Source: Eledone cirrhosa
Lineage: Eukaryota
Reading direction: 5' to 3'
DNA length: 64,000 nt
Assembly (NCBI GenBank): GCA_964016885.1
Contig: OZ024742.1
Coordinates: 19,592,001-19,656,000, forward strand
Shown here: positions 10,027-64,000 of the stretch, in pieces
Layout: every line of letters starts with the position of its first letter
Position numbering within the stretch: the stretch's first letter is position 1
Program-made: the position numbers and the translations under genes
Notes under the pieces: model-generated
What the model saw: only the letters and a program-made list of their open reading frames with translations
The model's database searches: none
What the model was told of the DNA's origin: nothing

Positions 10027-10082
10027 ACTGCTATATATATTTCGATGATAGCCATTGAATGGCTATGACCTCATCAGGCAGT
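10027..10082 (-). ncRNA. Type I hammerhead ribozyme, family E
   Basis: ACTGC-CTGATGA-GGTCATAGCCA-TTCAA-TGGCTATCATC-GAAA-TATATA-TA-GCAGT. Stem I ACTGC/GCAGT. Confidence 0.85.
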
Positions 10083-18662: not shown

Positions 18663-18666
<4 letters not shown>

Positions 18667-18985
18667 ATACAATAACAGAGATAGTTTAAAGCTAAACTCT
18701 GACTGGTAACCATCTCACTCAACAAACATTAGGTTATATTTTAATATAAACCCAATTTAAGTGTTTGGGGTGCTAACAATATGTATTATGTGGAAAAGCC
18801 AGTTGTATTATTTTATGAGATATAATTAAAGTTAAAATACATCTCTCTTTCCAAACAATTGTTTCATTATAAGTTTTCTACAAATTGGGAGAATATTTCC
18901 AGTTTATGTAGAAGCCTAATATACATTCATGTAAGAATATATTTAGGTGGGCGCTTATAAATCATCAGTGGAAGCCCATTAAACT
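18663..18985 (-). mobile_element. PLE-terminus, family J
   Basis: Homologous to 37672-38033, 54605-54890 and 22301-22373. Confidence 0.75.
18849..18973 (-). ncRNA. Hammerhead with expanded stem II, family J
   Basis: TTCCA-CTGATGA-T-TTATAAG-[~80 nt, two hairpins]-CTTATAA-T-GAAA-CAATTG-TT-TGGAA. Confidence 0.8.
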
Positions 18986-19356
18986 TTGATATAAGAAAAA
19001 ATTCTTACCGCAGTTAAAAATAGTGTCTGTTAAGTTGCTCCTTCTCGCATATATATATATATATATATTTCGTATTTCTAAAGAAATACGGTTTTAGGAA
19101 GCCGTAGCTATGCAAACACCGGGGTCTAACACCCACTGGTGGTGCCAGCAGAAGCAAGGAGGACAACCGTCTATGCATTTCAGGCTTGACTGGTCTCCGT
19201 CAGGACGGTCTCTCCGACCGCTTGCTACTGCTGGACTTGAAAACAGTTGAGAATATATAGTTTTCTCGTCTGTGTAAATGAGGTGATTAATCTCATTTGC
19301 ATATGAAACTGCATAAGTTGGCTCAACTTATAATAGAAATAGGAAATTTCTATACA

Positions 19357-32959: not shown

Positions 32960-33686
32960 ATAAGGAGTTGACGGACCCATCATATTTATCAATGCCAGGA
33001 CCGGTTGTATCTCAGCGTACTCCATGGGCAATGTAAGATACATTCCCAGTGTATACTCATAGTTATTCGCTTCAATACAACACACGTAAAACGGGTGACT
33101 ATAATAGTTCCCGGACTCGAGTTTCGGCCACACTTAATGCAGCAGTAAGGTGCACTGCATCCTCTGTCTGCATATATTATGCAACAATGCATAATCGGCG
33201 TATGTGGGCTTCATCAGCGGGTGTCGCCTAATCAATAACCAATCGATCGACAGAATCCAAACCCCAGCCCATGCCGGCTATGACTTTGTGACAGCCGACA
33301 CGGTAAAGTGATTAGCAACTGGAATCCGATACAATTCTGTCCCTCGACTAGCCACCAATTTACAAACTTTACGTGGTGGCGGGGGAATATAAAACAAATC
33401 TTTTCGTTCCTGTCAAAGCCTTCAGCCAACGTGTCTCACAGACAAATTAATAAGTGAAAAGATGGTTATTAAAAATAGCAGTCCCACATAGATGTATAAT
33501 AGAATGGTAGTGGTAGCATTCGACTCATGTCTCCAAGTCCCATGGCTAGAGGAAAGCGATAGTAACAATGGTAGTGCCAAGAACCTTAACGGACATTAAA
33601 TGCCAGTATCTATTATAGAGCGATATATAGTAGCGAGCTGGAATGCGGCAGCCGCGTGCATAAACCAGTCTATTTCACAACACTTA
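32960..33686 (-). mobile_element. TA-flanked non-coding insertion, family L
   Basis: Bounded by TA tracts. Contains an expanded HHR and the GAGTAC motif. Confidence 0.65.
33110..33221 (-). ncRNA. Hammerhead with expanded stem II, family L
   Basis: CCCG-CTGATGA-A-GCCCACAT-[ATTATGCA/TGCATAAT and ATGCAG/CTGCAT hairpins]-GTGTGGCC-GAAA-CTCGAG-TC-CGGG. Confidence 0.78.
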
Positions 33687-34327: not shown

Positions 34328-35753
34328 ATAATAAATTTGAAGACTAAAATCCAAAGAGGGCTCGATAAGGATAAATATATATCAAATATATAAGAACCGT
34401 AGAGCAAATATTTATTAAAATAACAGATTAAAGTTTAAGCAAAGAATCGCTGCTTTCACCCTTAACGGGATCTTCTGAAACTAAAAAAATCAATCTGTGA
34501 ATGCAGAAATATTTCGAAAAACGTTGCAACCGAAGGAAGACAGAAAGACGATACTTTTGTTCGTGGAAACGTTCCCTGGCAAAGAACGAAGAAAAAAAAC
34601 GAAGATAATACGTCATTATTTGGAACGTAGAAAACAATTACACGCAAAGACAAAACCACGTTTATGGGAATTCTTCCTTGATAGAGAAAAGAAGGAAAAG
34701 GCCGATAAGATCAGTAACCTCTGCAGAATCACTGGCGCCCATACTCACATCGAATGGGGGTACTATTAGATTTTTTTATCCAAATAGAGTCGAAATTAAT
34801 CACCGACTTACGGGCATTGAGGATGACATCAACTTCGAAATCCTTAACCACCGTGAGCGTTTTAGCGAAATTGATAGCTCTAAGAAGAAGTGGTAAAGTG
34901 ATGGAGGAGTAGTAGTTATTGATGTCAAATTGGATAAAACGGCAATGTTCCTTGTTGCATATGCCATTGAACCAATCAATCACCGCGAAAGAATTGTTCC
35001 ACAGTGCAAGAGGGGCGAAGCTTCTAATTTCAGGTATAATTCTATCTAAATTCCTTTTACTAAGTCTACCTAAATCGGACTTCGTAGGGTTAATAAGCCG
35101 AATAGAGGGGTTGTTCGGGAAATTGGATTTGTGACTCTTCAGGGTAAAGTGGGGAGAAATAGGGTCCAGAGGTTCAGTTCGGTCCTGGATGTTGAGATCA
35201 AAGGTGATTTTAAACCCAGCATCGCTGATGTCATTAATGACACTCCGATTAGTTTTACGGTAATACTTAGTTACAGCATTATGTAGCAGTTGATGGTAAG
35301 TACTGCGCTCAACTTGATATAGATTGCCAGCTTTGTCGGAGTGGACGTGCACGGCATTAGAATCCTCAATAGAACGAATTCTATTCTTCAGGTCCTGCTG
35401 GAAGGAATTGCTCCTATTCCGAAATTTATACTCCGTATGAGTTCCAAGACATCCTTTTCGAAGGGTAGCAATGCTGGGTTACACGGAGGGTTATTATAGG
35501 TTTTAAACCCAAATTTATCCTGTTTGTTGTCTGCTTTTCGCTGATTATCGAAATAAAAGGCACGCCAACGCAACCTTTTAATGAACGAGTCTGTTTTCTG
35601 TATCAGGAGTTTCAGGTATTTCGTCGTGCTTGGTACGGGTATGTTCTTTGTAGAAATATTCAGATGTTGTTTCTGCATGATGAATATAAGTCAATAGAGT
35701 GCTCAACCGAGGGAGCCAAATAGTAATAATAATAAATTTATTGGTCGTTTTGG

Positions 35754-36645: not shown

Positions 36646-37565
36646 AATAAAATAATAGTTTCCATTTATTAATATATTGTATATTTACTCACTAAATTGT
36701 TGAGTGCTTTATATCAGTTATAAACATGTTTAAGCTTGTTGAATCCCAACAAATTAAATATAACCTCTGCATATATTTAGCTCCTTTATTGTTGAGCACT
36801 TTAAATTATAACTGATTAAAAATGGAATTCTTTAAGATCTCTTCTTCTCTAAAAGACATACCTTTACCTAAGAATAAGGACTTTCTAAAACAACTTATTG
36901 AAAAATTGAAAAAGAAGACTTAGATGGCGTGCTTTTCATTTTGATAAAAAATCTGATGGAAAAGAAAATATTTCCAATCTTGATGGAATCTTCAAATCCA
37001 AAAAGAATCCATCTTCCAACAAATTATTAATGGCATTTGAAAATGAGATTATTTCTATCATACAAAACATAAAATTTAAGAAAAATCATTTTGTAGGCCA
37101 GGATTACCTCAAATGTCTCAAAAATAATATAAAAAATTTTGAAAGAATGGAAAAAATTCTTGTTAAATCGGATAAAACCACCAATCTTTACGGAATGCAA
37201 AAGGACATTTATAACGATCTTATATTAAAGGAATTAAGGAACAATTACAAAAGAGCAGCCAATGACGACCTTGAACGACTAAATACTGAAGCTTCTAATA
37301 TAATGCAAGAAGTAGGCATCGAAAATAAGACTCAACCCTTCATACCTAGCAAACCAAAAATTAATTGACTATCCAGCGAATTTCAACAGTTGAGGTTGTC
37401 TTTTTTCCGGGTATGTCAATATTTATTTATAAAACAAATCTGTATTTTATCTCATGAAAGCGCACCATAATTTACCTTGGTCGCCCTTGAAATATATATA
37501 ATAAAATAATTATAGTTTTATAAATATAGTTTCTATTTATTAATATATTGTATATATATATATAA

Positions 37566-37675
<110 letters not shown>

Positions 37676-37730
37676 ATTATCGCTAAATACTGATGTTGGT
37701 TAGATTATCAATATTAGTATTATTGGGGCA

Positions 37731-37857
37731 CCCACTGATGAATTATAGGAGCCCACTTGAATATATATCTATTGATGGTATACAAGCTCCTACATAAATT
37801 GGTATAATTTCACCCAAATTGTAGGAATCCTATAATGAAACGAGACGTCCGTCTGGG
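37731..37857 (+). ncRNA. Hammerhead with expanded stem II, family J
   Basis: CCCA-CTGATGA-ATTATAGGA-[two hairpins]-TCCTATAAT-GAAA-CG-A-GACGTC-CG-TC-TGGG, inside the TA-flanked insertion 37672-38033. Confidence 0.82.
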
Positions 37858-38028
37858 AAGAGATATATTCGATATGTCTCATATGAAATAATACAGTCAA
37901 TTTTCCACGTAATACATTTAGTTAGCACCCCGAACGCTTAATTAGGAATATACTCACTTATTTCCTAATGTTTGTTGAGTAGGTTGGAATTTGGCCGGAG
38001 TATCGCTAAAAAGCTTTCTCCGATAATG

Positions 38029-38109
<81 letters not shown>

Positions 38110-44805: not shown

Positions 44806-47408
44806 AGTTGCATTTATCTTGCTTTATGTTCATACGAGTTATCACCAAGTCACAACCAGTGACCTCAAGAGACAACAAGGTCCGCCATGTTCAAGAAAGA
44901 ACATACATACTCACACATGCATCTTTAGTGTTTAGACTTGTGATGTACTTATATTGACAGAATCTTCCTTAGTATATGGGCAGTTCCCATTAGTACTATC
45001 TTTTGTATTTCTCCTATACGCGGGTTTCCTGCGATTTGCGATAAGTAGTCATTAGACCCCTTAGGTATCATTCCCAGAGCGCCTACAACCACTGGTATTG
45101 TTTTAGTTCTCAATTTCCACATTTTTCCAATTTCTATCTCCAGGTCCTTATACTTGCTCAATTTTTCAAATGTTTTTATAGATACATTCTTGTCTATTGG
45201 AACAGACATATCAATTAGCAGGCATACCCTCTTTTGAAAGTCCTTCAATATTATATCAGGTCTATTTGCATCTATTTTTCGGTCTGTTTGGATGCTAAAG
45301 TTCCACAAGATTGAGATGTGATCTTTTTCAAGTATGGGAGGTGGTTGATGCTCCCACCAATTCTTTTGATGGGGCAGGTCAAAATGCTTACACATTATCC
45401 AATGTATGTATTGTGCAGCTCTGTCATGCCTGTTTAGGTATTCGGTTGGAGCTATAGGACTGCACATTGAAATTATATGGTCAATGGTCTCTGGTTGTTT
45501 TTTGCATACACGGCATAATGGGCTGCACCCATTTTTTATTATGTTGGCTTGGTAATTTTTTGTTGGCAGACACTGATCTTGTGCCGATATAATCAGTCCT
45601 TCAGTCTCCGATTTCAGTCCAGAGGATGCCAACCACTGATGGGTTAAAGTTTTGTCAACATCAGGATTGTTAGCTCGCTCTGGGTATTTTCCATAGAGAG
45701 GCTTTTCTTGCCATTTCTTAGCCAGTTTCTGTAGCAGTTCTTTCTTTGCAGTTACTTTTACCTGCTTTGCTTTTTCTGTGTTTTCCATTTTAGCAGTAAA
45801 TGGGACTTCTGAGATTTGTAGTCCATTACTGTATTTTTGTGCATCTTTTGTAATGGAATATGATCTTTTGATGCTTTCGTGTTTCAAAACGAGTTTGATC
45901 ATCTAATCATGTGATTCCCTTAGATATGTAGATAATCCAATTGTTGCAGTTTTCAACGCAATGTCTAACTGGATTAACCCACGTCCTCATTCTTTCCTAG
46001 GGAGATATATTCTATCTATATCTCCCTTAGGGTGATGTATTCTGTGCATGGTTAAGAATTTTCGAATTTTTGTATCGAGCCTACGGATCTCTGTGCTTGA
46101 CCAGTTGATGACATTGTAACTGTAGGTTACTACTGGTATGGCAAGCGTGTTTATGGCATCGATCCTATTCCTTGCATTCAATTCCGTTCTTAAGATTGCT
46201 CTTACTCTGCGGTAACATTCCTTCCTTATCCTTTCCCTCATTGTCGAGTGCTTGATTCCGTCTCCTTCACAAACACCTAGATATTTGTAAGTTTTTTCTT
46301 GATCAAGTTCTCTTATCACGTTCCCCCGATCAAGATTAATGTCTGAACTCTTCAGCAGCTTTCCTCTGGTGAACGTTGCTTTGGCGCATTTATCTAGTCC
46401 AAACTCCATTTTAATGTCATCACTGAACTGCTTCACAGTGGATAATAGCCCTTGCAATTGTTCATCATTTTTTGCAAATATTTTCAGGTCATCCATGTAG
46501 AACAGGTGATTAATGGTTTTGTCATAGACTTTATATCCATGTTTTGTTTCATTGAGCATTTTACTTAATGGTATAAGTGCGATGCAGAATAAAAGCGGTG
46601 ATAAAGAGTCACCCTGAAAAATTCCACAATTAATATTAACTTCTCCAGCTTCCAGTGATTTTGTTTCACTATTCAAAAGGAGTGTCGTTTTCCATGTCTT
46701 CATACTGAATGACAAAAACCTCCTGACAACGGGGGATATTTTGAAAATCTCTAAACATTTTTCAATCCAACTGTGTGGCAAACTATCGAATGCTTTTTTA
46801 TAATCTATCCAAGCAATCGATAGATTTTTGTGTCTTTTTGTTAACCAGAAGCTGATCCTTACAGCCATATGAGCCTCGTTTACACCCTTTCTGCTCAATG
46901 GGAAATAGGTCATTTGTTATCAGGTGGTCATATGTGTATTCAGTTAGGACTGATGTTAACATTTTATACATTGTGGTCAAGCAAGTTATCGGTCTGTAAT
47001 TTTTGGGATTGTTTGTCTCATCATTCTTCGGAAGCAGGAATGTAATGCCGTTAACTAGCCATGAAGGTATCTTTTCTGGCTCCTTAACTATTTCATTGTA
47101 AAGTTGGGCTAACAGCTCATGAGACTCTGTGAAGGCATTTATCCAAAAGTTTTGTATTTTGTCTTTTCCTGGGGATTTGCATTTGCTGGTTTTTCTTAGA
47201 GCCAAGCGCAACTGTTCAACTGTTATATTTTCCCATGTTTGTTCCTCAAGGTGAGCTGTATCTTTCATTTGTTTGTCTATCCATGGGGCATGTATGTTAT
47301 GAACTTTTTCTTCGGCCCAGATCTTTTCCCAGAATTCTTGCACTTCCTCCTTGGGTGGTATTGATTTAGCAGTTATTGTTGACTTACCAATTTTTCTGTA
47401 GAAGTTTC
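44804..47408 (-). mobile_element. R4/Dong-clade LINE, 5'-truncated and disrupted, in (TAA)n
   Basis: RT motifs (NYRPITCL, WIDYKKAFDS, GIFQGDSLSP, HLFYMDD) and RLE motifs (CRVC..ETIDHIISMC, RHD, RPDIIL..LIDMSVP, K.SKY). (TTA)n on both sides. Dong elements are known TAA-repeat targeters. Confidence 0.9.
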
Positions 47409-47431
47409 TATTATTATTATTATTATTATTT

Positions 47432-47924
47432 TTATCTGTCTGGTGGCCATGGCGAAAGAGATAGTATGGTGGACACGTTTGAAAGGGCTGAAGACGAGCA
47501 CTTACCTCTTCGGTGATGCTCTGATTGACTTTTTCAAATTTCATTTGAAAAGGAAAATCAGAGTAGAGAAGGAAGTGCTCTCTTCCCAGCATTTTGTTGA
47601 AAGATGGGTGAGAGAAGCAAGAATGGCCCGAGTGAATGGGCCGACTCTGAGTATATATCTGTAAACTAAAGGTGGAAAACTGGGAGAGGGCACTTGCCTT
47701 GGTGGTCAGGGTCATTGTGGCTTTTTACTGGGCTTTCTCCACAAATGTCCCTCCGAAGTCTCCCCCCTATTGGGGAATTTTTCATTGTTATTTTCATTGT
47801 TATTTTTGTTACATCCTCTGTTTTTGTTTTTTTACACGCAGAAATGCCCATTTGTACCGTCCTGCATTGTCCTGCACTGTCCTTAATGTCTACTTTATGT
47901 AAACCCTTGTGGTTAATAAAGAAA

Positions 47925-51154: not shown

Positions 51155-52050
51155 CAGGGGGATTTCAATCCCTCTTGGTCCCGTGTAGCTGTGCTGAAGG
51201 TTGTTATGGTAGGGCTTGAACTTTTCCAGCATTAAATTGCATGTTACTGTCCTCAACTCATTTGTATATGGTACACAGATCTTGTAAAAGGGTAGCATCA
51301 GCCGTTTTTTTGTTTGCCTGTGCTACCTGTGTCTCATCAGCATAGCTAGTGAGGGATGTTGTACCTACTAAAGGAGGAATGTCTGAGAGAGCCACCAAAA
51401 ACAATAGTGGTCCCAAGACTGTGCCCTGGGGCACCCCACTTGTTATTGTTGTTTCCTTTGAGAGGGCCCCATTGTCTTTTAAGAAATCATGCAGCCACCC
51501 ACCTACTTTTCCACTTATGCCGAGTCTGTATAATTTGTGACATATCATTCTGTGGTCGACCTTGTCAAAGGCCTTCGCAAAGTCAAGATATATCACGTCC
51601 ACATGTGAGCTGTCCAACAGTTGTTTCCGTAGCCAGTCATAGTGTTGTAACTGCTGTATAAGGTAGCTTCTTATGCTAGTTCGGCGGTCATTTTCCTCGA
51701 GGAACGTGATCAGTTTCTTTCTGATGATCCGTTCCATGACTTTACATATATGTGATGTCAGGGAGACTGGCCTGTACTTTTTGGCCTCCGCTCTGCTTTC
51801 TCCTTTAAGGAGAGGGCATATTGTACATTGTTTTAGCTCTCTGGGTAGTTTACCGCTAGCCAAAGAACTTTTGAAGAGGCTCTTTAGTGGTCTTGCTAAG
51901 GCCCGCTTACATGTTTTTAGGATTGCTGGGATTCCAACAGGTCCATCAGCTGAGTTTGTTCTAATTTCATCTATGGCGGATATCACCTCTCCTTCCGTTA
52001 TGTCTATGTGGTGGATGGTCGCCATTTCTTCGTGGAGTGTTGTGGCTTGA
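51155..52050 (-). pseudogene. CR1/L2-group LINE RT fragment
   Basis: [48 protein letters not shown] and YADET, with deletions. Confidence 0.85.
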
Positions 52051-52066
52051 AAGAAACCCTCTCTCG

Positions 52067-52275
<209 letters not shown>

Positions 52276-52280
52276 TTACT

Positions 52281-52460
<180 letters not shown>

Positions 52461-52919
52461 AAACATAAATTATCGAGATTCGCATTTCGGCCCACGAAAT
52501 AACGAAAAACAACCTCCGAGATGTGCGGCAAGTGCTCAATGATTCAGATGAACCAGAGCTATAACAAACGTTAAGGGGCAAACACACTGAGGCGATGGTT
52601 AAACAATCATTCGCATAGTCCCAAAAAACGATCAAGTAATTCGGGTATTGAAAATTTACCTGGACCCCTGGAAGGTTGGTAAAATCCAGTATATGGGTTT
52701 CTGCGGCTCCTAAATTAAGTACCGTCCGCTTACATAAATAATGTCAGGCTTCTGGTAAGATGATTGAACAAGGAAGCCACTTTCTCAACAGGTTTTAGTT
52801 CAATGTTAATACAAGGACTGACTATTGCTGACCCCACGTGGGGATCGGCAAGGGAGGCAACCCCTATATCAGGCGAATGAATTCAGTTGTGTATATTTTT
52901 GCAAGAATGCAAAAACATC

Positions 52920-54392: not shown

Positions 54393-54586
54393 GTTATTCC
54401 GGGTTGAATCGGAGGTAACCACAGTAAGTAAGGTACTCAATACATAGCAGAGTATAACAGTTTTAATATAGATGAGATTCTACAGGACTAGAACTGTTTC
54501 ATTCATTAGAAATCATCAGGATTCCTGATGATTTCTAATGAATGAAACAGTTCTAGTCCTGTAGAATCTCATCTATATTAAAACTA
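54392..54586. mobile_element. Hairpin insertion, family B
   Basis: Perfect ~60-bp arms turning at 54522; HHR at 54520-54568. Confidence 0.85.
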
Positions 54587-54604
54587 TATATATATATATA
54601 TATA

Positions 54605-54885
54605 AGTGCCCACCTGCATATATTCCTATAGACTATGTGTAGGCTTCTACATAACCTGGACATTATTTTCCCAACTTGTAGAAAACTTATAATGAAACGA
54701 TCGTTTGGAAAGAGGGATGTATTTAATTATGTCTCATATAAAATAATACAGCTGGCTATCCGCAAAATAAGTATAGTTAGCAGCCCAAACGTATAATTGG
54801 GATTATACTAAGGTATATCCTAATGTATGTTGAGTGAGACGGAAGTCGGTCGGAGTATTGCTTAAAGCTTTCTCTGTTAATGTAT

Positions 54886-54890
<5 letters not shown>
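54605..54890 (+). mobile_element. PLE-terminus, family J (HHR 5' core lost)
   Basis: Retains both stem II hairpins and CTTATAAT-GAAA-CGATCG-TT-TGGAA. Confidence 0.75.
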
Positions 54891-56344: not shown

Positions 56345-59300
56345 TATTAAGGATATTATTTATAGTTATGTATATTTTAAACTATAAACAGGGAAGGTCA
56401 GTAATTTATTACTACCTTATTACCAGTAAGATAAATAGCTCAATGTAATAACATCAGTTGTTCTACAGAGCATTTATATAGAATTCACAAGAATCAAAGC
56501 TATGTTCAAAGCATTTATTCACTTACAATTGTTTCATCCAAACCTTGGCCTGCGGTCTTCGGAGCATTTTTCAATGTTTGTACATATAATTGACTTCCTA
56601 TCCAACGCAGGAGACATACAGATACATATATATATATATTGATGTACAGTGGAGCGACATATATTATATTATACTATATTTGTACAGCAATTCAAATTTA
56701 AAATCAAAATTAAAATACATGCGGCAGATAACACAGATAATGTAAGAGGATAGTTTGATAATCAGGTATGCGTTAGTCACACATGGAGCATGAAAGTGTG
56801 TCTCATTTATATACGATTATTGTGTGGCAAGGTGTTACATGTAATGCAAGCACTTTAAGCGGGTAAGCAAGAGTATTATGGTGGTTGTTGTTGTATGGTA
56901 TTTTTTGTATAGATCAAAAAAGTATGTGTGCAGAAAAAGAAAAAGAAAAAGAAAGTTATAGTTTTTGCATCCACCACCATTTTTACATTCAGAAAAGGAA
57001 GAAATAGTTTTTACATCCATCACATAAGTTACGATGATTCCGTATTGAATGTTTGATGCATTAAATTATTGTAGCGTATTGAGGCTCAGTGTTATTTAAT
57101 CCATATTTATAGAATAGGTTCTTTCTGCAGCGAGAATTTACAGTGGTTTATTACCCGGAAGTAGGTGTGCAATTAAGGGGAGTTAATGCGTAAGGGGAGG
57201 TAACTAGCTAATTCTCATAACTAAATTCATTGTTCTAATATACATTATATGGTGCCTCAATTGAGTCCCTTATATAAAAGGTTATATATTTATATCTAAA
57301 TTTCAATTTTAAATAGAGTCTACTCTATCATAATGTACTAAAGGTATCTATAGTAAGTTGATTACTCCTTATTATATAGTGCTACAATTGAATTTCCCAT
57401 ACAAAGTGCCATATCTTTATATCAAAGTTCACTGTAAATACAGTCTACTCTCAAAACATATCAGAGGACCTATTAAAATTTTGTCTACATAACCCCCGGT
57501 AAGTTATGGAGCAGCGTATGGCTGTTTGCATGACAAAATCAAATACATCTCTTGGGTAGACAAATACATCCCTCATTTACAATGTCATTAATCTATCCAT
57601 CAAGTTATACATGCATATATAATTCATATATAATTCATTGCACCACTCTGCATATACGTTAGACAGATCACTTATGTTAATAAATCAATCCTATGTATAT
57701 CTAATGTTATTACTCCATAAATTTAATTACAGATGCATATATAATTCACTGCCGTATCTAGTATTTAAAGTTTATATAGACTGTATTATATTTCTATCCC
57801 TATATAATTATAAGTAATTGAAAGTAATTATATTAAAGGTTGGTGTTTATGCGGATATTTCTAGGGTATAAAGTTATAGATAGAGAGAATGATTTGTGTC
57901 GAGGGAAGGGTGGATCAGAGAGTGTGGTGTAGTTGTGTAAGGCATGCCCTTGGGGTGTGGTGTTAGAAGCGGTGATGGGTTCAAGTCTGACATTGTTATA
58001 TATTGGGTTTAAAGTTTTGGAAGGAGTGCCGGGAACGGTGCTGGCACGACGCAAACACTTCCGATTTTTTTTATTAAGGAGGTTAAGGTTCGAAAAGATT
58101 ATAGTATGGGTCTCTAGTAGACAGAGGTTACAGAATTTATTAGGTGGTCTGTACGATGCCGCCTTACCTATCACTTCCCATTAAAGTGTATATGATCTAT
58201 TTCTAGTTTTCAGATAGTGTATGTAGCTAGATAGTGAAGTGGAGTTGGCTAGACTGTGTTTTTTGAAAGAATGGAGATGTGAATTGTATCTGGTTTTGAA
58301 GCAGTTCGAAGTAGAGCCTATATAGGTTTCAGAAGAGTTGCTAGTTCTGACCCTGCATGAGTAGATGATGTCCTTGATTAAGCAGTTTTTACCTAAAGGG
58401 CAGGTTCTATTAGATCTACAGTTACAATTATTTTGGATGATAACCTGTCGGTTATTATGTTGTGTAGAAGTCTGGTTGCTAGGTATTGCATTATGGCTAT
58501 GGGGGTTGTCGCTCCCAATGTTATTGATTTCATTAGTGTTATTACTATTATTACTATTGATATCAGGTTTTGCAGATATTACGTTGTTTTGAAAGTTTAC
58601 CCCCTGCTGTGTTTTAGTTTGTTGAAAGTAAGTATTAATCTTTCTTTTATTGCTACTAGCTATGTGGTATGCTATGTTAGGCGTGGTAGAGTAGGAGATT
58701 TTAAAGGTGTTTTTATTTATAAGACTATGGTACTTGTGGCCAGATGGGAAGTTTTTTATCCAGGAGTGAGAAGAAAGATTAGGTAGGTTGGTAGAGACGT
58801 TTAGATTGAAAGGGGGGTTGAAAATGTATTAGTTCTTCTTCTATTTTTGTTTTTTATATCTGTTGAGGTGTTTCTGTTTATGGTATTTTGGTGTCTTCTC
58901 TGGTGTGAGTTACGTTTGTTGCTACCCTTCGTATTAGTGTGTGTGTGGTTATTACTCTTATTACTATTTTTCCTCATGGATATATTGTGAGAAATAATGT
59001 TGTAACTATGTGTTTTTATAGGTAGGAACTCGATCTCATTATTATGGCCTGATCTAGCTAATGCCTGATTATAGTATTGTGAGTTTTTGCTAAATATGGT
59101 TTCGTCATAAGACAGATTAGAGATTCTATTGGATATTCCTTTAGAGATAGAGTTTAATGTTGATCTAGGGTGGTTAGACTTGGTATCTATGTAAATTAGT
59201 TTTTCGTTAGGTTTATGGAATGGTGTGTATATTTTAGAGTCTAGGTAAAGGGTGGTATCAAGGATGTTAACGTTTTTAGTGTTTTTGTCTATGGTGATAC

Positions 59301-59843
59301 TTAGGTTATAGTTTTTGAAAGTCTTATGCAATAGTTTCCTAGTTCTTTCTATATTAAATTTGTTATAGTCTATAAGGAGTAGTGCATCATCGCGGTACAA
59401 ACCACCGTTGAGGTATGGTAGGTCCTTATGGATTTCGTTTAGTAGGTATAGGCCCACCAAATCAGTGACCTGCGCCGAGTCACTAGATCCCATGGTTATG
59501 TCAAAGTTATTATGCGTATCTTTGCGGGTCCATAACTGATCTTCAAAAGTGATTACGGTTTTACGGGCCGCAAGTATGACATCAATCTGAGGTCTAGTCA
59601 GGTCACTATTGTTCATGGCCATAATTAGTGCTTTATTTAATAGGATAGGGGAAATAGAGGTGTAGTATGAATTGATATCAAACTGAATATTTTTTTTATT
59701 TTTGTTCTCTTTGATATCCACTGCGTTGGATAGGAAGTCAATTATATGTACAAACATTGAAAAATGCTCCGAAGACTCCAAGCCTAGGTTTGGATGAAAC
59801 AATTGTAAGTGAATAAATGCTTTGAACATAGCTTTGATTCTTG

Positions 59844-59844
<1 letters not shown>
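56345..59844 (-). mobile_element. 5'-truncated decayed PLE with inverted terminal arm
   Basis: RT motifs (FDINSYYTSI, ITMGSSDSAQ, GGLYRDD), endonuclease motifs (IIYSCRV..YIGSTS..FKTRYNSH; CNLCLLE), ~1.3-kb 3' region. 59721-59844 is the inverse of 56486-56610. Confidence 0.88.
59766..59810 (+). ncRNA. Hammerhead-like fold with CCGAAGA core; other copy about 56521-56566 on minus
   Basis: GCT-CCGAAGA-C-TCCAAGCC-TA-GGTTTGGA-T-GAAA-CAATTG-TA-AGT. Confidence 0.65.
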
Positions 59845-59937
<93 letters not shown>

Positions 59938-59940
<3 letters not shown>

Positions 59941-60161
59941 TGCAGTGCTGAGACTAAGGAGATCACTAATTTTGTGAGTACTCGATACATGGGGAGATGT
60001 AGAGTGGGTATAGAGATATGTAAAATCCCGACCGCGGCGCCAAGCAGTTTCGGGTTGGCGCCGCGGTCGGGATTTTATATATCTCTATACCCACTCTACA
60101 CCAACCCATGTCTCGAGTACTCACAAAATTAGTGATCTCCTTAGTCTCACCACTGCAGACT
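59938..60161. mobile_element. Hairpin insertion, family T, flanked by (GA)n and CT-rich DNA
   Basis: ~105-bp arms. Distant relative of family A (TACCCACTCTAC, CGAGTACTC, GAAACTGCTTG). Confidence 0.8.
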
Positions 60162-62564: not shown

Positions 62565-64000
62565 TCATTTATTAGCCACAAGGACCGACATGTAGGGGAC
62601 AATACAAAGACAGGGACAGTGGAGGTTTACAATAAGATTCAGTAAAAATGCACAATAACAAAACCAATTTAACAATGAAAAAATATAAAATAACTATATA
62701 TAAAATTAACAAAATGAATTTCCTAATAGGGTGGGGGGGGGGTCGTGAACCACCAGGGGCTACTCAGGTACCCCACCAATCGTGAACCACCCGACACTTC
62801 TAGGGCACCCCTCTCATCCACAAATTAACCAGCCTACAGGCACATGGTCAGAGTAGGCCCACTCACACGGGCCATTCTCGCCACATTCACCCACCTTTCA
62901 GCAAATGTACTGGGAGCAGCACTTCTCTCTCCACCCTCACCTTCCTTTCCAAGTGAAACTTGAAAAAGTTGATGAGGGATTGGCCGAAGAGAAAATTCTC
63001 TGTCTTCAGTCCTTTCAACCTCGTCCACCATACAACCTCTTTCGCTACTGCCACCAGAGAGAGGAAACTTGCCTGCCCTTCCTGGCCAAAAGAAGGCGGC
63101 GGGTCGATCTTCACTATGGACTCGGCCGATAGCCGGATCCGTTCTACACGCGACAACAGCTGTTCGACATAACTCCACAAGTCAGTAATGCACGGACATT
63201 GGACGAGTGCGTGCATAACGGTTTCGTCGCTCTGCGCGCATCTTGGGCAGGTACGTCTGACAACACTTCCGAGCCTGGAGAGTTTATCTTGAACCGGCAG
63301 TGCCCCCCGGTAACACTGCCAAGCGAGGGATTTCTGGAAGTTATCCATCAACCCCGGCTCGAAAGTCCTCCGGAACAGACTGGTCAGTTCGACTTCGTAG
63401 ACGCCCAGAGCCTCTCTGAGTGCGTCGTCGCACTTGCCCACCACTAATCCTCTATAGAACTCGAGAGTGGAAGTTCCACTGACCGCATTGCCCACCTGGT
63501 AGAGGGCAGTGAGTGCCTGGCAACATTCCAGATACCAGTGACCCAGTCTCGGTCTCTTCTTGATCCAAGACTGCTGCTTAGTCATAGAGACGAGCTGCGG
63601 AAAGGCCTGTCAGACAAACGGCGACCACACCTGTTCACCGTTTAGGCAGAATGTCTGGAGATGCCGCAGCCTCAGCGTATGTCTGCGCATCATTACTCTC
63701 CGCGTAAAGGGTGCTGGCAGCAGATGGATCGCCTCACCAACGGAACCTGTCCCCTCCAAAAGAAGTTGAAGAGAAGCCGTTCTAACTTGGCGAGGTGTGG
63801 ACGAAGGCAAGGCACGACGGTCAGGCGGTAGTAGATAACGGATGCGATGTACGTGTTCGCCACCTCCACCCGACCTTTCAGTGACAGCTTCCTCGCTGCC
63901 CATTTCTGGGTGAGACTGGCTACCCTGATCGTCACCTCGTCCCAATTCTTATCCAAACCGGCCCGTCCGTCCAGCGCCCAATGACGCTGTTGGACTGCAT
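62565..64000 (-). mobile_element. Tx1/L1-type LINE ORF2 C-terminal part, continues past the right edge
   Basis: QKWAARKLSLKGRVEVAN...FNFFW and zinc finger CPRCAQSDETVMHALVQC. 3' UTR ends at a TAA-type repeat. Confidence 0.8.

Follow-up and report, generated by a model that had tools for sequence, protein, structure and literature searches.

The hammerhead motif at positions 37731 to 37857 (+) of the DNA analyzed here, a 64,000-nucleotide stretch (the window) of microsatellite-rich sequence within a 3-Gb animal genome, that of Eledone cirrhosa, carries a branched stem II domain with a junction strand complementary to the nucleotides just upstream of stem I. Judged from its sequence, we regard this Penelope-type hammerhead as a structural variant that is truly new and for which a specific pseudoknot is predicted. 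The explanation toward which we lean, with a little better than even confidence, is that a type I hammerhead motif sits here within a tandem element that lacks protein (family J), that its stem II three-way junction would form a GCCC-GGGC pseudoknot, and that the element would be copied in trans and its RNA cut as a dimer. The original prediction, of three diverged hammerheads sharing a multibranched stem II supported by covariation, was partly confirmed as an observation and partly supported in its interpretation.

The copy of family J that contains this motif (subfamily B; 37672 to 38032, +) is 5' truncated, derives from a 701- to 702-bp noncoding unit, and has a (TA)n run on either side. 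Stem I pairs 37731 to 37734 with 37854 to 37857 and is followed by the CUGAUGA catalytic core (37735 to 37741) and the 95-nt stem II domain (37742 to 37836), whose 9-bp base helix (37742 to 37750 with 37828 to 37836) closes a three-way junction. Within the domain lie the GCCCA junction strand (37751 to 37755), inner hairpin 1 (37756 to 37786), in which pairing is maintained despite substitutions, and inner hairpin 2 (37788 to 37826), which has an internal loop and is nearly invariant across J. The segment from 37837 to 37853 holds GAAA (37837 to 37840), a short helix III with a near-palindromic loop, and the GUC triplet (37851 to 37853), and the motif predicts cleavage after 37853. GGGC at 37726 to 37729 would be the 5' strand of the pseudoknot and the junction strand its 3' strand. 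A structured 3' region (37858 to 38032) runs to the fixed 3' end of the insertion, the putative start site of reverse transcription.

A second copy, of subfamily A and the 989- to 999-bp unit type, lies at 18663 to 19049 (−), with its hammerhead at 18849 to 18973 and UGGGC at 18978 to 18974. The distance from CUGAUGA to GAAA is 96 nt in this copy and 95 nt in copy B, and both are complete type I hammerhead motifs, with a CUGANGA core, GAAA, NUH with A15.1-U16.1, three helices, and the open end at stem I. Only these two of the three predicted copies are complete. The third, of subfamily C (54605 to 54889, +; hammerhead portion, 54605 to 54710), begins at a (TA)n run within the 5' strand of stem II and is thus truncated inside stem II, without the catalytic 5' half. 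Because it lacks the stem I 5' strand and CUGAUGA, there is no hammerhead at the 54605 locus; the full core is present in other genomic copies of subfamily C.

The helices listed in the original prediction (stem I, the stem II base, and inner hairpins 1 and 2) are all present in the sequence, and the isolated domains fold as it described, into a three-way junction with z-scores of −3.3 (B) and −5.0 (A); none of 200 shuffled sequences was equally stable. RNAalifold, given six subfamily representatives, returned the identical three-way junction unprompted. Across J, stem II is a 95- to 97-nt branched structure with a base helix of 7 to 9 bp, unlike the short simple loop II of the dimer-type hammerheads of Penelope-like elements (PLEs). 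The G10.1-C11.1 position is G-C in 6 of 10 J subfamilies, U-U in 3, and A-U in 1; U-U at 10.1-11.1 is frequent in the Hydra hammerheads tabulated in File S2 of PMC8557442. Stem I might also continue beyond an internal loop (TATATC with GATRTA), a pairing that competes with a downstream hairpin. We considered whether the hammerhead hides the start of a reading frame, as it does in PAc, and rejected this: the ATG before GAAA opens frames of 11 to 18 codons and is absent from three subfamilies. No SECIS element, an idea taken from the Naiad paper, was seen by eye.

The Rfam comparison that had been proposed was run, and no hammerhead model covers the window or the element. At the gathering score there were no matches in the whole window, and a search of 37670 to 38035 at E-values up to 10 gave no hammerhead and one weak snoRNA match (E = 3.3). 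Since the Rfam hammerhead models expect a short stem II, the missing match bears on novelty and not on function.

We then considered whether stem II has been under selection. Among six subfamily representatives, 95.9% of 246 cells (41 pairs) were paired, with nine pairs changed on both sides, a level reached by none of 500 shuffles. Related copies inflate such counts, and changes were therefore mapped on a subfamily tree built from 111 copies, grouped into 10 subfamilies of two or more after 8 singletons were dropped. The catalytic core showed no change in 12 columns over the 10 subfamilies, versus 0.80 changes per column in the stem II domain and 0.89 downstream. The 29 domain pairs showed six same-branch co-changes, four of which preserve the pair, versus 1.8 expected by re-pairing columns (P = 0.003); for the inner hairpins by themselves the figures were 2 and 1.2 (P = 0.34). 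When substitutions were redrawn on the same branches, hairpin 1 kept 93 of 100 cells paired against a null of 80.1 (P = 0.002), the helix at the base of stem II had 86 of 90 (null, 83.5; P = 0.25), and hairpin 2 had 98 of 100 (null, 97.9; P = 0.73). The last result is uninformative within J because the hairpin 2 columns are nearly invariant. Covariation thus supports the whole domain and hairpin 1, which is the part of the predicted stem II covariation that stood; that claimed for hairpin 2 comes down, within J, to one compensatory pair among near-invariant columns. The case for hairpin 2 rests on thermodynamics, that compensatory pair, and a different but paired counterpart in a second family, M.

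The junction strand GCCCA can pair over 4 to 5 bp with UGGGC, immediately 5' of stem I. The pairs show no compensatory change within J, where four of the five never vary among the six representatives; G-U-compatible variants are GCCCG in three J subfamilies and GGGU in M. Family M is homologous to J, as judged by its 3' region (nhmmer E-value of about 1e-7) and by scores of 47 to 62 bits with our model R1. With the alignment read by eye, M differs from J on both sides of three of four stem I pairs, three to four of seven stem II base pairs, and three of nine hairpin 1 pairs. M nevertheless retains GGGC and GCCC although most of the stems have turned over, so the original remark that the linker GCCCA is kept holds, as a conserved GCCC junction strand, beyond J and into this sister family.

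A third family, K, is represented in the window by a hammerhead at 33110 to 33228 (−), with a two-hairpin stem II (85 nt at this copy), GGCG upstream, and CGCC at the junction. The two-hairpin fold is present in 18 of 19 K copies. M and K can be aligned without gaps across the first 40 nt, which places GGCG and CGCC of K at the positions of GGGC and GCCC. In this alignment 35 of 36 cells of the 4-bp helix are paired and two of the four pairs have changed on both sides, which amounts to a single evolutionary event; the swap depends on the ungapped register and disappears if the sequences are aligned on GGC/GCC. Subfamily K_116 keeps only three of the four pairs. No homology of K to J or M was detected by nhmmer, and R1 scores K at 20 to 26 bits, the level of (TA)n false hits. 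If K is independent of J and M, the match would be convergence, which would likewise favor pairing. The sequence of hairpin 2 is not retained in M or K. In copies of K (L112 to L135 and L189), the GGCG and CGCC sites show decay from CG to CA/TG, which suggests that these repeats are methylated at CpG.

When the genome was searched for G/C 4-mers of whatever sequence with this spacing, there were 220 matches, versus none for the control. Among the matches listed (100 of the 220), about 87, read by eye, were exact complements; since nearly all of these are K copies, they count as one event and not 87. When 140 long-stem-II motifs were sorted into 16 groups, all three multicopy groups with two hairpins carried an upstream/junction complement, and no recurring G/C-rich 4-bp complement was found in the seven multicopy one-hairpin groups. 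With many long-stem-II families here lacking it, the pseudoknot is not required for a long arm. Stem I-stem II pseudoknot hammerheads (Perreault et al. 2011) would show covariation in a helix of 4 bp or more that joins the stem I flank to the stem II loop; here 4 to 5 bp are present, they are invariant in J and M, and a two-sided change is found only between M and K. We conclude that GGGC/GCCC in J and M, and GGCG/CGCC in K, predict a pseudoknot between stem I and stem II, which gives specific support to the original suggestion of a tertiary-contact domain. The pseudoknot would hold stems I and II side by side in place of the usual loop I-loop II contact, and the two inner hairpins would be the scaffold presenting the junction strand. 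Such a stem I-stem II pseudoknot is predicted for around 40% of natural hammerheads and is the commonest of their alternative tertiary contacts, according to the available text of PMC3088659.

Helix III is 2 to 4 bp long and is closed by palindromic loops that differ by family (AAUU, GAUC, GGCC, UCGA, ACGU, and CAUG). A palindromic helix III tetramer occurs in 121 of the 140 long-arm motifs, a count with some bias, since a purine or pyrimidine was fixed at the loop ends in some of the search patterns. The helix III self-dimer was calculated at −6.4 to −14.7 kcal/mol, and the monomer hairpin is unstable. J shares with PLE dimer-type hammerheads a helix I of 4 to 5 bp, a helix II base of 7 to 8 bp, and a short palindromic helix III. 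Lunse, Weinberg and Breaker reportedly described PLE hammerhead dimers in 2017. With a helix III this short and a palindromic loop, cleavage of J is likely to be dimeric: two units would pair by way of helix III, most of the cutting would take place in that state, and unit-length RNA would be freed from multimeric transcripts. Self-cleavage activity itself we infer from the motif. Published PLE hammerheads are poor at cleaving in vitro (PMC4209133, in part), eight of nine Xenopus retrozyme dimers gave no cleavage (bioRxiv 10.64898/2026.07.22.740005, in part), and cleavage is dispensable for PAc insertion in vitro, as stated in the available text of PMC11167929.

Family J is abundant. Its core pattern has at least 3,539 exact genome matches (copies with an intact core), versus none for the reversed control, and a 17-mer from the 3' region has 7,218. 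The window subfamilies are 72 to 83% identical among themselves, and the copies in the window each fall into a separate, young subfamily, with best genomic matches 97 to 99% identical. J copies occur in head-to-tail tandem units of 701 to 702, 767, and 989 to 999 bp, each with one hammerhead and no protein. They are variably truncated on the 5' side, and the 3' end falls 178 to 189 nt beyond the predicted cut. Of 111 copies, 85 enter (TA)n no more than 12 nt from a fixed motif and 8 run on into the following unit; the exact motif is missing from 16, and 2 fit none of these cases. In a tblastn search of two PLE proteins against all loci, none of 89 J copies and no M copy was contiguous with a Penelope reading frame; K copy L173, flagged as contiguous with a PLE frame, proved on inspection to be next to a separate insertion. 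In the 5' part of J units, upstream of the ribozyme (L019 and L034), are motifs resembling E2F (TTTGGCGG, TTCCCGC), ETS, and CHR promoter elements, which we take to be a possible internal promoter.

Tandem units with one hammerhead each, no PLE frame, 5' truncation, and a fixed 3' end are the anatomy of a nonautonomous PLE or a non-LTR retrozyme, and J is likely to be such a protein-less, (TA)n-targeted tandem element. Its 180-nt 3' region has helices of its own, with variable and partly compensated pairs across subfamilies (the count for one helix is blurred by alignment shifts). In copy B, 37858 to 38032 (+) contains several helices with pairs kept across subfamilies and is a candidate reverse transcriptase recognition domain. 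The fixed end downstream of the cut matches, by analogy, what was shown for PAc, in which reverse transcription is initiated internally, as reported in the available text of PMC11167929.

Other collections were also searched for the J/M pattern. At least 119 metagenome loci (35 of 64 parts scanned) and 12 viral loci matched, but none of the 131 passed the helix filter, and R1 matched none of the 92 metagenome or viral candidate loci scanned with it. Four contig sets yielded only further variants, with depth climbing toward the 3' end, which carries no weight on cleavage.

Long stem II arms are common genome-wide, which the original prediction overlooked when it called the branched domain unusual among PLE hammerheads and apt to be missed by descriptors. 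That claim stands insofar as Rfam gives no match and the domain exceeds the 35-nt loop II maximum in File S2 of PMC8557442. A pattern with a 62- to 92-nt stem II had 5,730 genome matches (control, 26), and J contributes its 3,539 further motifs at 93 to 97 nt. A similar pattern with 8 to 38 nt had 2,396 matches (control, 1,462), a figure that covers short hammerheads of the same helix III type only. Most of the other long arms fold as single irregular hairpins. Among many others, L081, L086, L102, L157, L168, and L311 represent unrelated hammerhead families with 62- to 105-nt, mostly unbranched stem II arms and thousands of copies, and several long-arm families sit at the ends of Hydra-type PLE frames.

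One such element, L311:934-4630 (genome sequence C3, near 9.96 Mb), is an intact Hydra-clade PLE with a 3,585-bp unit, a 773-aa frame, an 88- to 92-nt stem II arm in both terminal repeats, and at least 150 near-identical genome copies. Two 3' ends, about 115 nt apart, occur among its copies, one lying about 44 nt and the other about 159 nt past the cut; the PLE tail has been described as 30 to 40 nt, shorter than this spacing. Pfam gave one weak RT match on seven PLE proteins, and clade assignments therefore rest on published motifs, of which the L311 frame bears the Hydra-clade set RWK, DKT, and CxCX5C (as defined in section 11 of PMC8557442), with no CCHH. An L311-type Hydra element is, we believe, the most likely kind of helper for J; in trans, a Hydra-clade Penelope reverse transcriptase/endonuclease would copy J RNA, starting within it, downstream of the ribozyme. 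J targets (TA)n, as do other PLE clades too. No sequence link was found between J and L311, and none against eight other long-stem-II families, some of them autonomous; neither this comparison nor tblastn against the loci turned up an autonomous element whose hammerhead or 3' end resembles that of J.

The window contains a variety of related sequences. Further hammerhead motifs of several families with short or medium stems, often in inverted pairs, lie at 10077 (−), 11174 (−)/11272 (+), 14960 (+), 15810 (−)/16000 (+), 36000 (−)/36182 (+), 36503 (+), 54525 (+), 55083 (−), and 55894 (−), and 54450 to 54590 is a perfect palindrome made from one hammerhead motif. [quoted passage not shown] Broken Hydra-type PLE frames occur at 34729 to 35700 (−), 36910 to 37368 (+), and 58181 to 60084 (−), and fragments of other non-LTR retrotransposon frames at 44949 to 47724 (−), 51258 to 52469 (−), and 62887 to 63609 (−).

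GGGC/GCCC might instead be an off-switch that forms first during transcription, misfolds stem I and the stem II base, and silences the ribozyme until a protein or a second unit refolds it. When J was folded without pseudoknots, in 380-nt contexts, stem I had a probability of 0.00 to 0.15 and a nested GGGC/GCCC hairpin formed at the cost of stem II with p = 0.96 in subfamily A, 0.44 in C, and 0.37 in E, which makes a switch a live rival. It is also in keeping with PAc, whose hammerhead cuts only with its protein and whose template is uncleaved RNA, according to the available text of PMC11167929. Against this, the hairpin probability is just 0.01 in subfamily B, and the spacing from the core is fixed in M and K (7 and 9 nt), a better fit to a geometric contact. 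The folding program cannot model a pseudoknot, so the apparent competition may be an artifact, and we consider the switch unlikely.

The branched domain might also serve mainly to bind the Penelope protein or some host factor, a platform through which these noncoding elements gain access to copying, with the complementarity incidental or secondary. A protein site could account for the near-invariant sequence of hairpin 2 in J, and the intact, recently amplified Hydra element likewise has its 88- to 92-nt stem II; the hairpin 2 sequence is, however, lost in M and K, and the arms of autonomous elements are single hairpins of unrelated sequence. The PAc minimal template leaves out most of the hammerhead, the required template lying downstream of stem II (PMC11167929, available text), where J has its own structured 180-nt region. 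PAc belongs to a different clade and serves by analogy only; on that analogy the RT-binding domain suggested originally is not supported. We think a platform rather improbable. Lastly, stem II could simply be a tolerant site that gathered sequence in AT-rich elements; on this view no particular closed fold would be needed, the ribozyme could be weak or dead, and the details would be passed on without having a function. This would suit the range of stem II lengths genome-wide, from 11 to more than 100 nt with unrelated sequences, and the pairing test is largely uninformative owing to invariant columns. Yet the core is invariant, tree covariation and hairpin 1 pairing are significant (P = 0.003 and 0.002), and the two-hairpin layout and its complement are common to J, M, and K, all of which make such passive growth very unlikely. 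A pseudoknotted stem II junction remains our preferred explanation for J.

Penelope hammerheads have been described as minimal and without recognizable tertiary contacts. More tentatively, with confidence somewhat short of even, we propose that J, M, and K represent an undescribed architecture, in which a stem II junction would donate the pseudoknot strand, and that they are the most elaborate of a large hidden long-arm class (more than 9,000 motifs in this genome, outnumbering the short ones of the same helix III type) missed by length-capped searches. The same blind spot may explain the "half-core" motifs of Naiad elements, which are said to lack hammerheads: the Naiad core search used a 7- to 17-nt spacer and noted eight half cores at 35 to 50 nt (PMC8557442, in part). 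Since Rfam finds none of the long-arm hammerheads here and the Naiad search used that 7- to 17-nt spacer, claims of PLE clades without hammerheads merit a re-search with stem II length left open. This one genome also offers a natural series in which stem II runs from 11 to 100 nt and a pseudoknot is predicted for some members but not for others. The elements are recently amplified and lie beside an intact autonomous element, their putative partner, which permits direct tests of whether activation depends on a dimer, a pseudoknot, or a protein.

Among known systems, J resembles the metazoan PLE hammerheads, or min-HHR (Cervera and de la Pena 2014, PMC4209133, available text) and the Hydra-clade hammerheads in File S2 of Craig et al. 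(2021, PMC8557442), a table that covers Hydra and Chlamys-group hammerheads. All are type I, with a helix I of 4 to 5 bp, a helix II base of 7 to 8 bp, an unpaired or U-U position after A9, a short palindromic helix III, and a place at the 3' end of (TA)n-targeted elements. The tabulated Hydra-clade loop II is 3 to 10 nt, and loop II in the table as a whole reaches 35 nt at most, whereas in J the stem II helix closes a three-way junction of 75 nt, for which a pseudoknot is predicted. The stable helix III self-dimer and unstable monomer of J recall the dimer-type PLE hammerheads of PMC4209133. Like non-LTR retrozymes, which are nonautonomous PLE derivatives (PMC7229834), J consists of protein-less tandem repeats with one type I hammerhead per unit and dispersed monomers (PMC7229834 and bioRxiv 10.64898/2026.07.22.740005, both in part). 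It differs in having units of 0.7 to 1 kb, which match or exceed the upper end of the published range (51 to 972 bp), an end about 180 nt past the cut, and a branched stem II, and it is known from genomic DNA alone.

Full-text literature yielded no branched stem II in retroelement hammerheads, although supplementary lists of earlier surveys could hold long-arm examples. The available text on PAc, an autonomous Poseidon element of another clade studied in vitro (Frangieh et al. 2024, PMC11167929), mentions neither a branched stem II nor a pseudoknot; what J and PAc would share is an internal start of reverse transcription downstream of the hammerhead cut and fixed 3' ends. The PK hammerhead, known from its structure (Zhan et al. 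2024, PMC11300833, in part), likewise contains a pseudoknot, but there it replaces helix II, which is intact in J (8 to 9 bp). A parallel for the predicted contact is offered by the pseudoknotted hammerheads of Perreault et al. (2011, PMC3088659), which also join a stem I flank to the stem II loop region by a 4- to 5-bp Watson-Crick helix. Their partner strand lies in a terminal loop, whereas that of J lies in a multibranch junction after an 8- to 9-bp stem, an arrangement of which the available text, in which repetitive type I motifs were left out of the stem-length analysis, describes no case.
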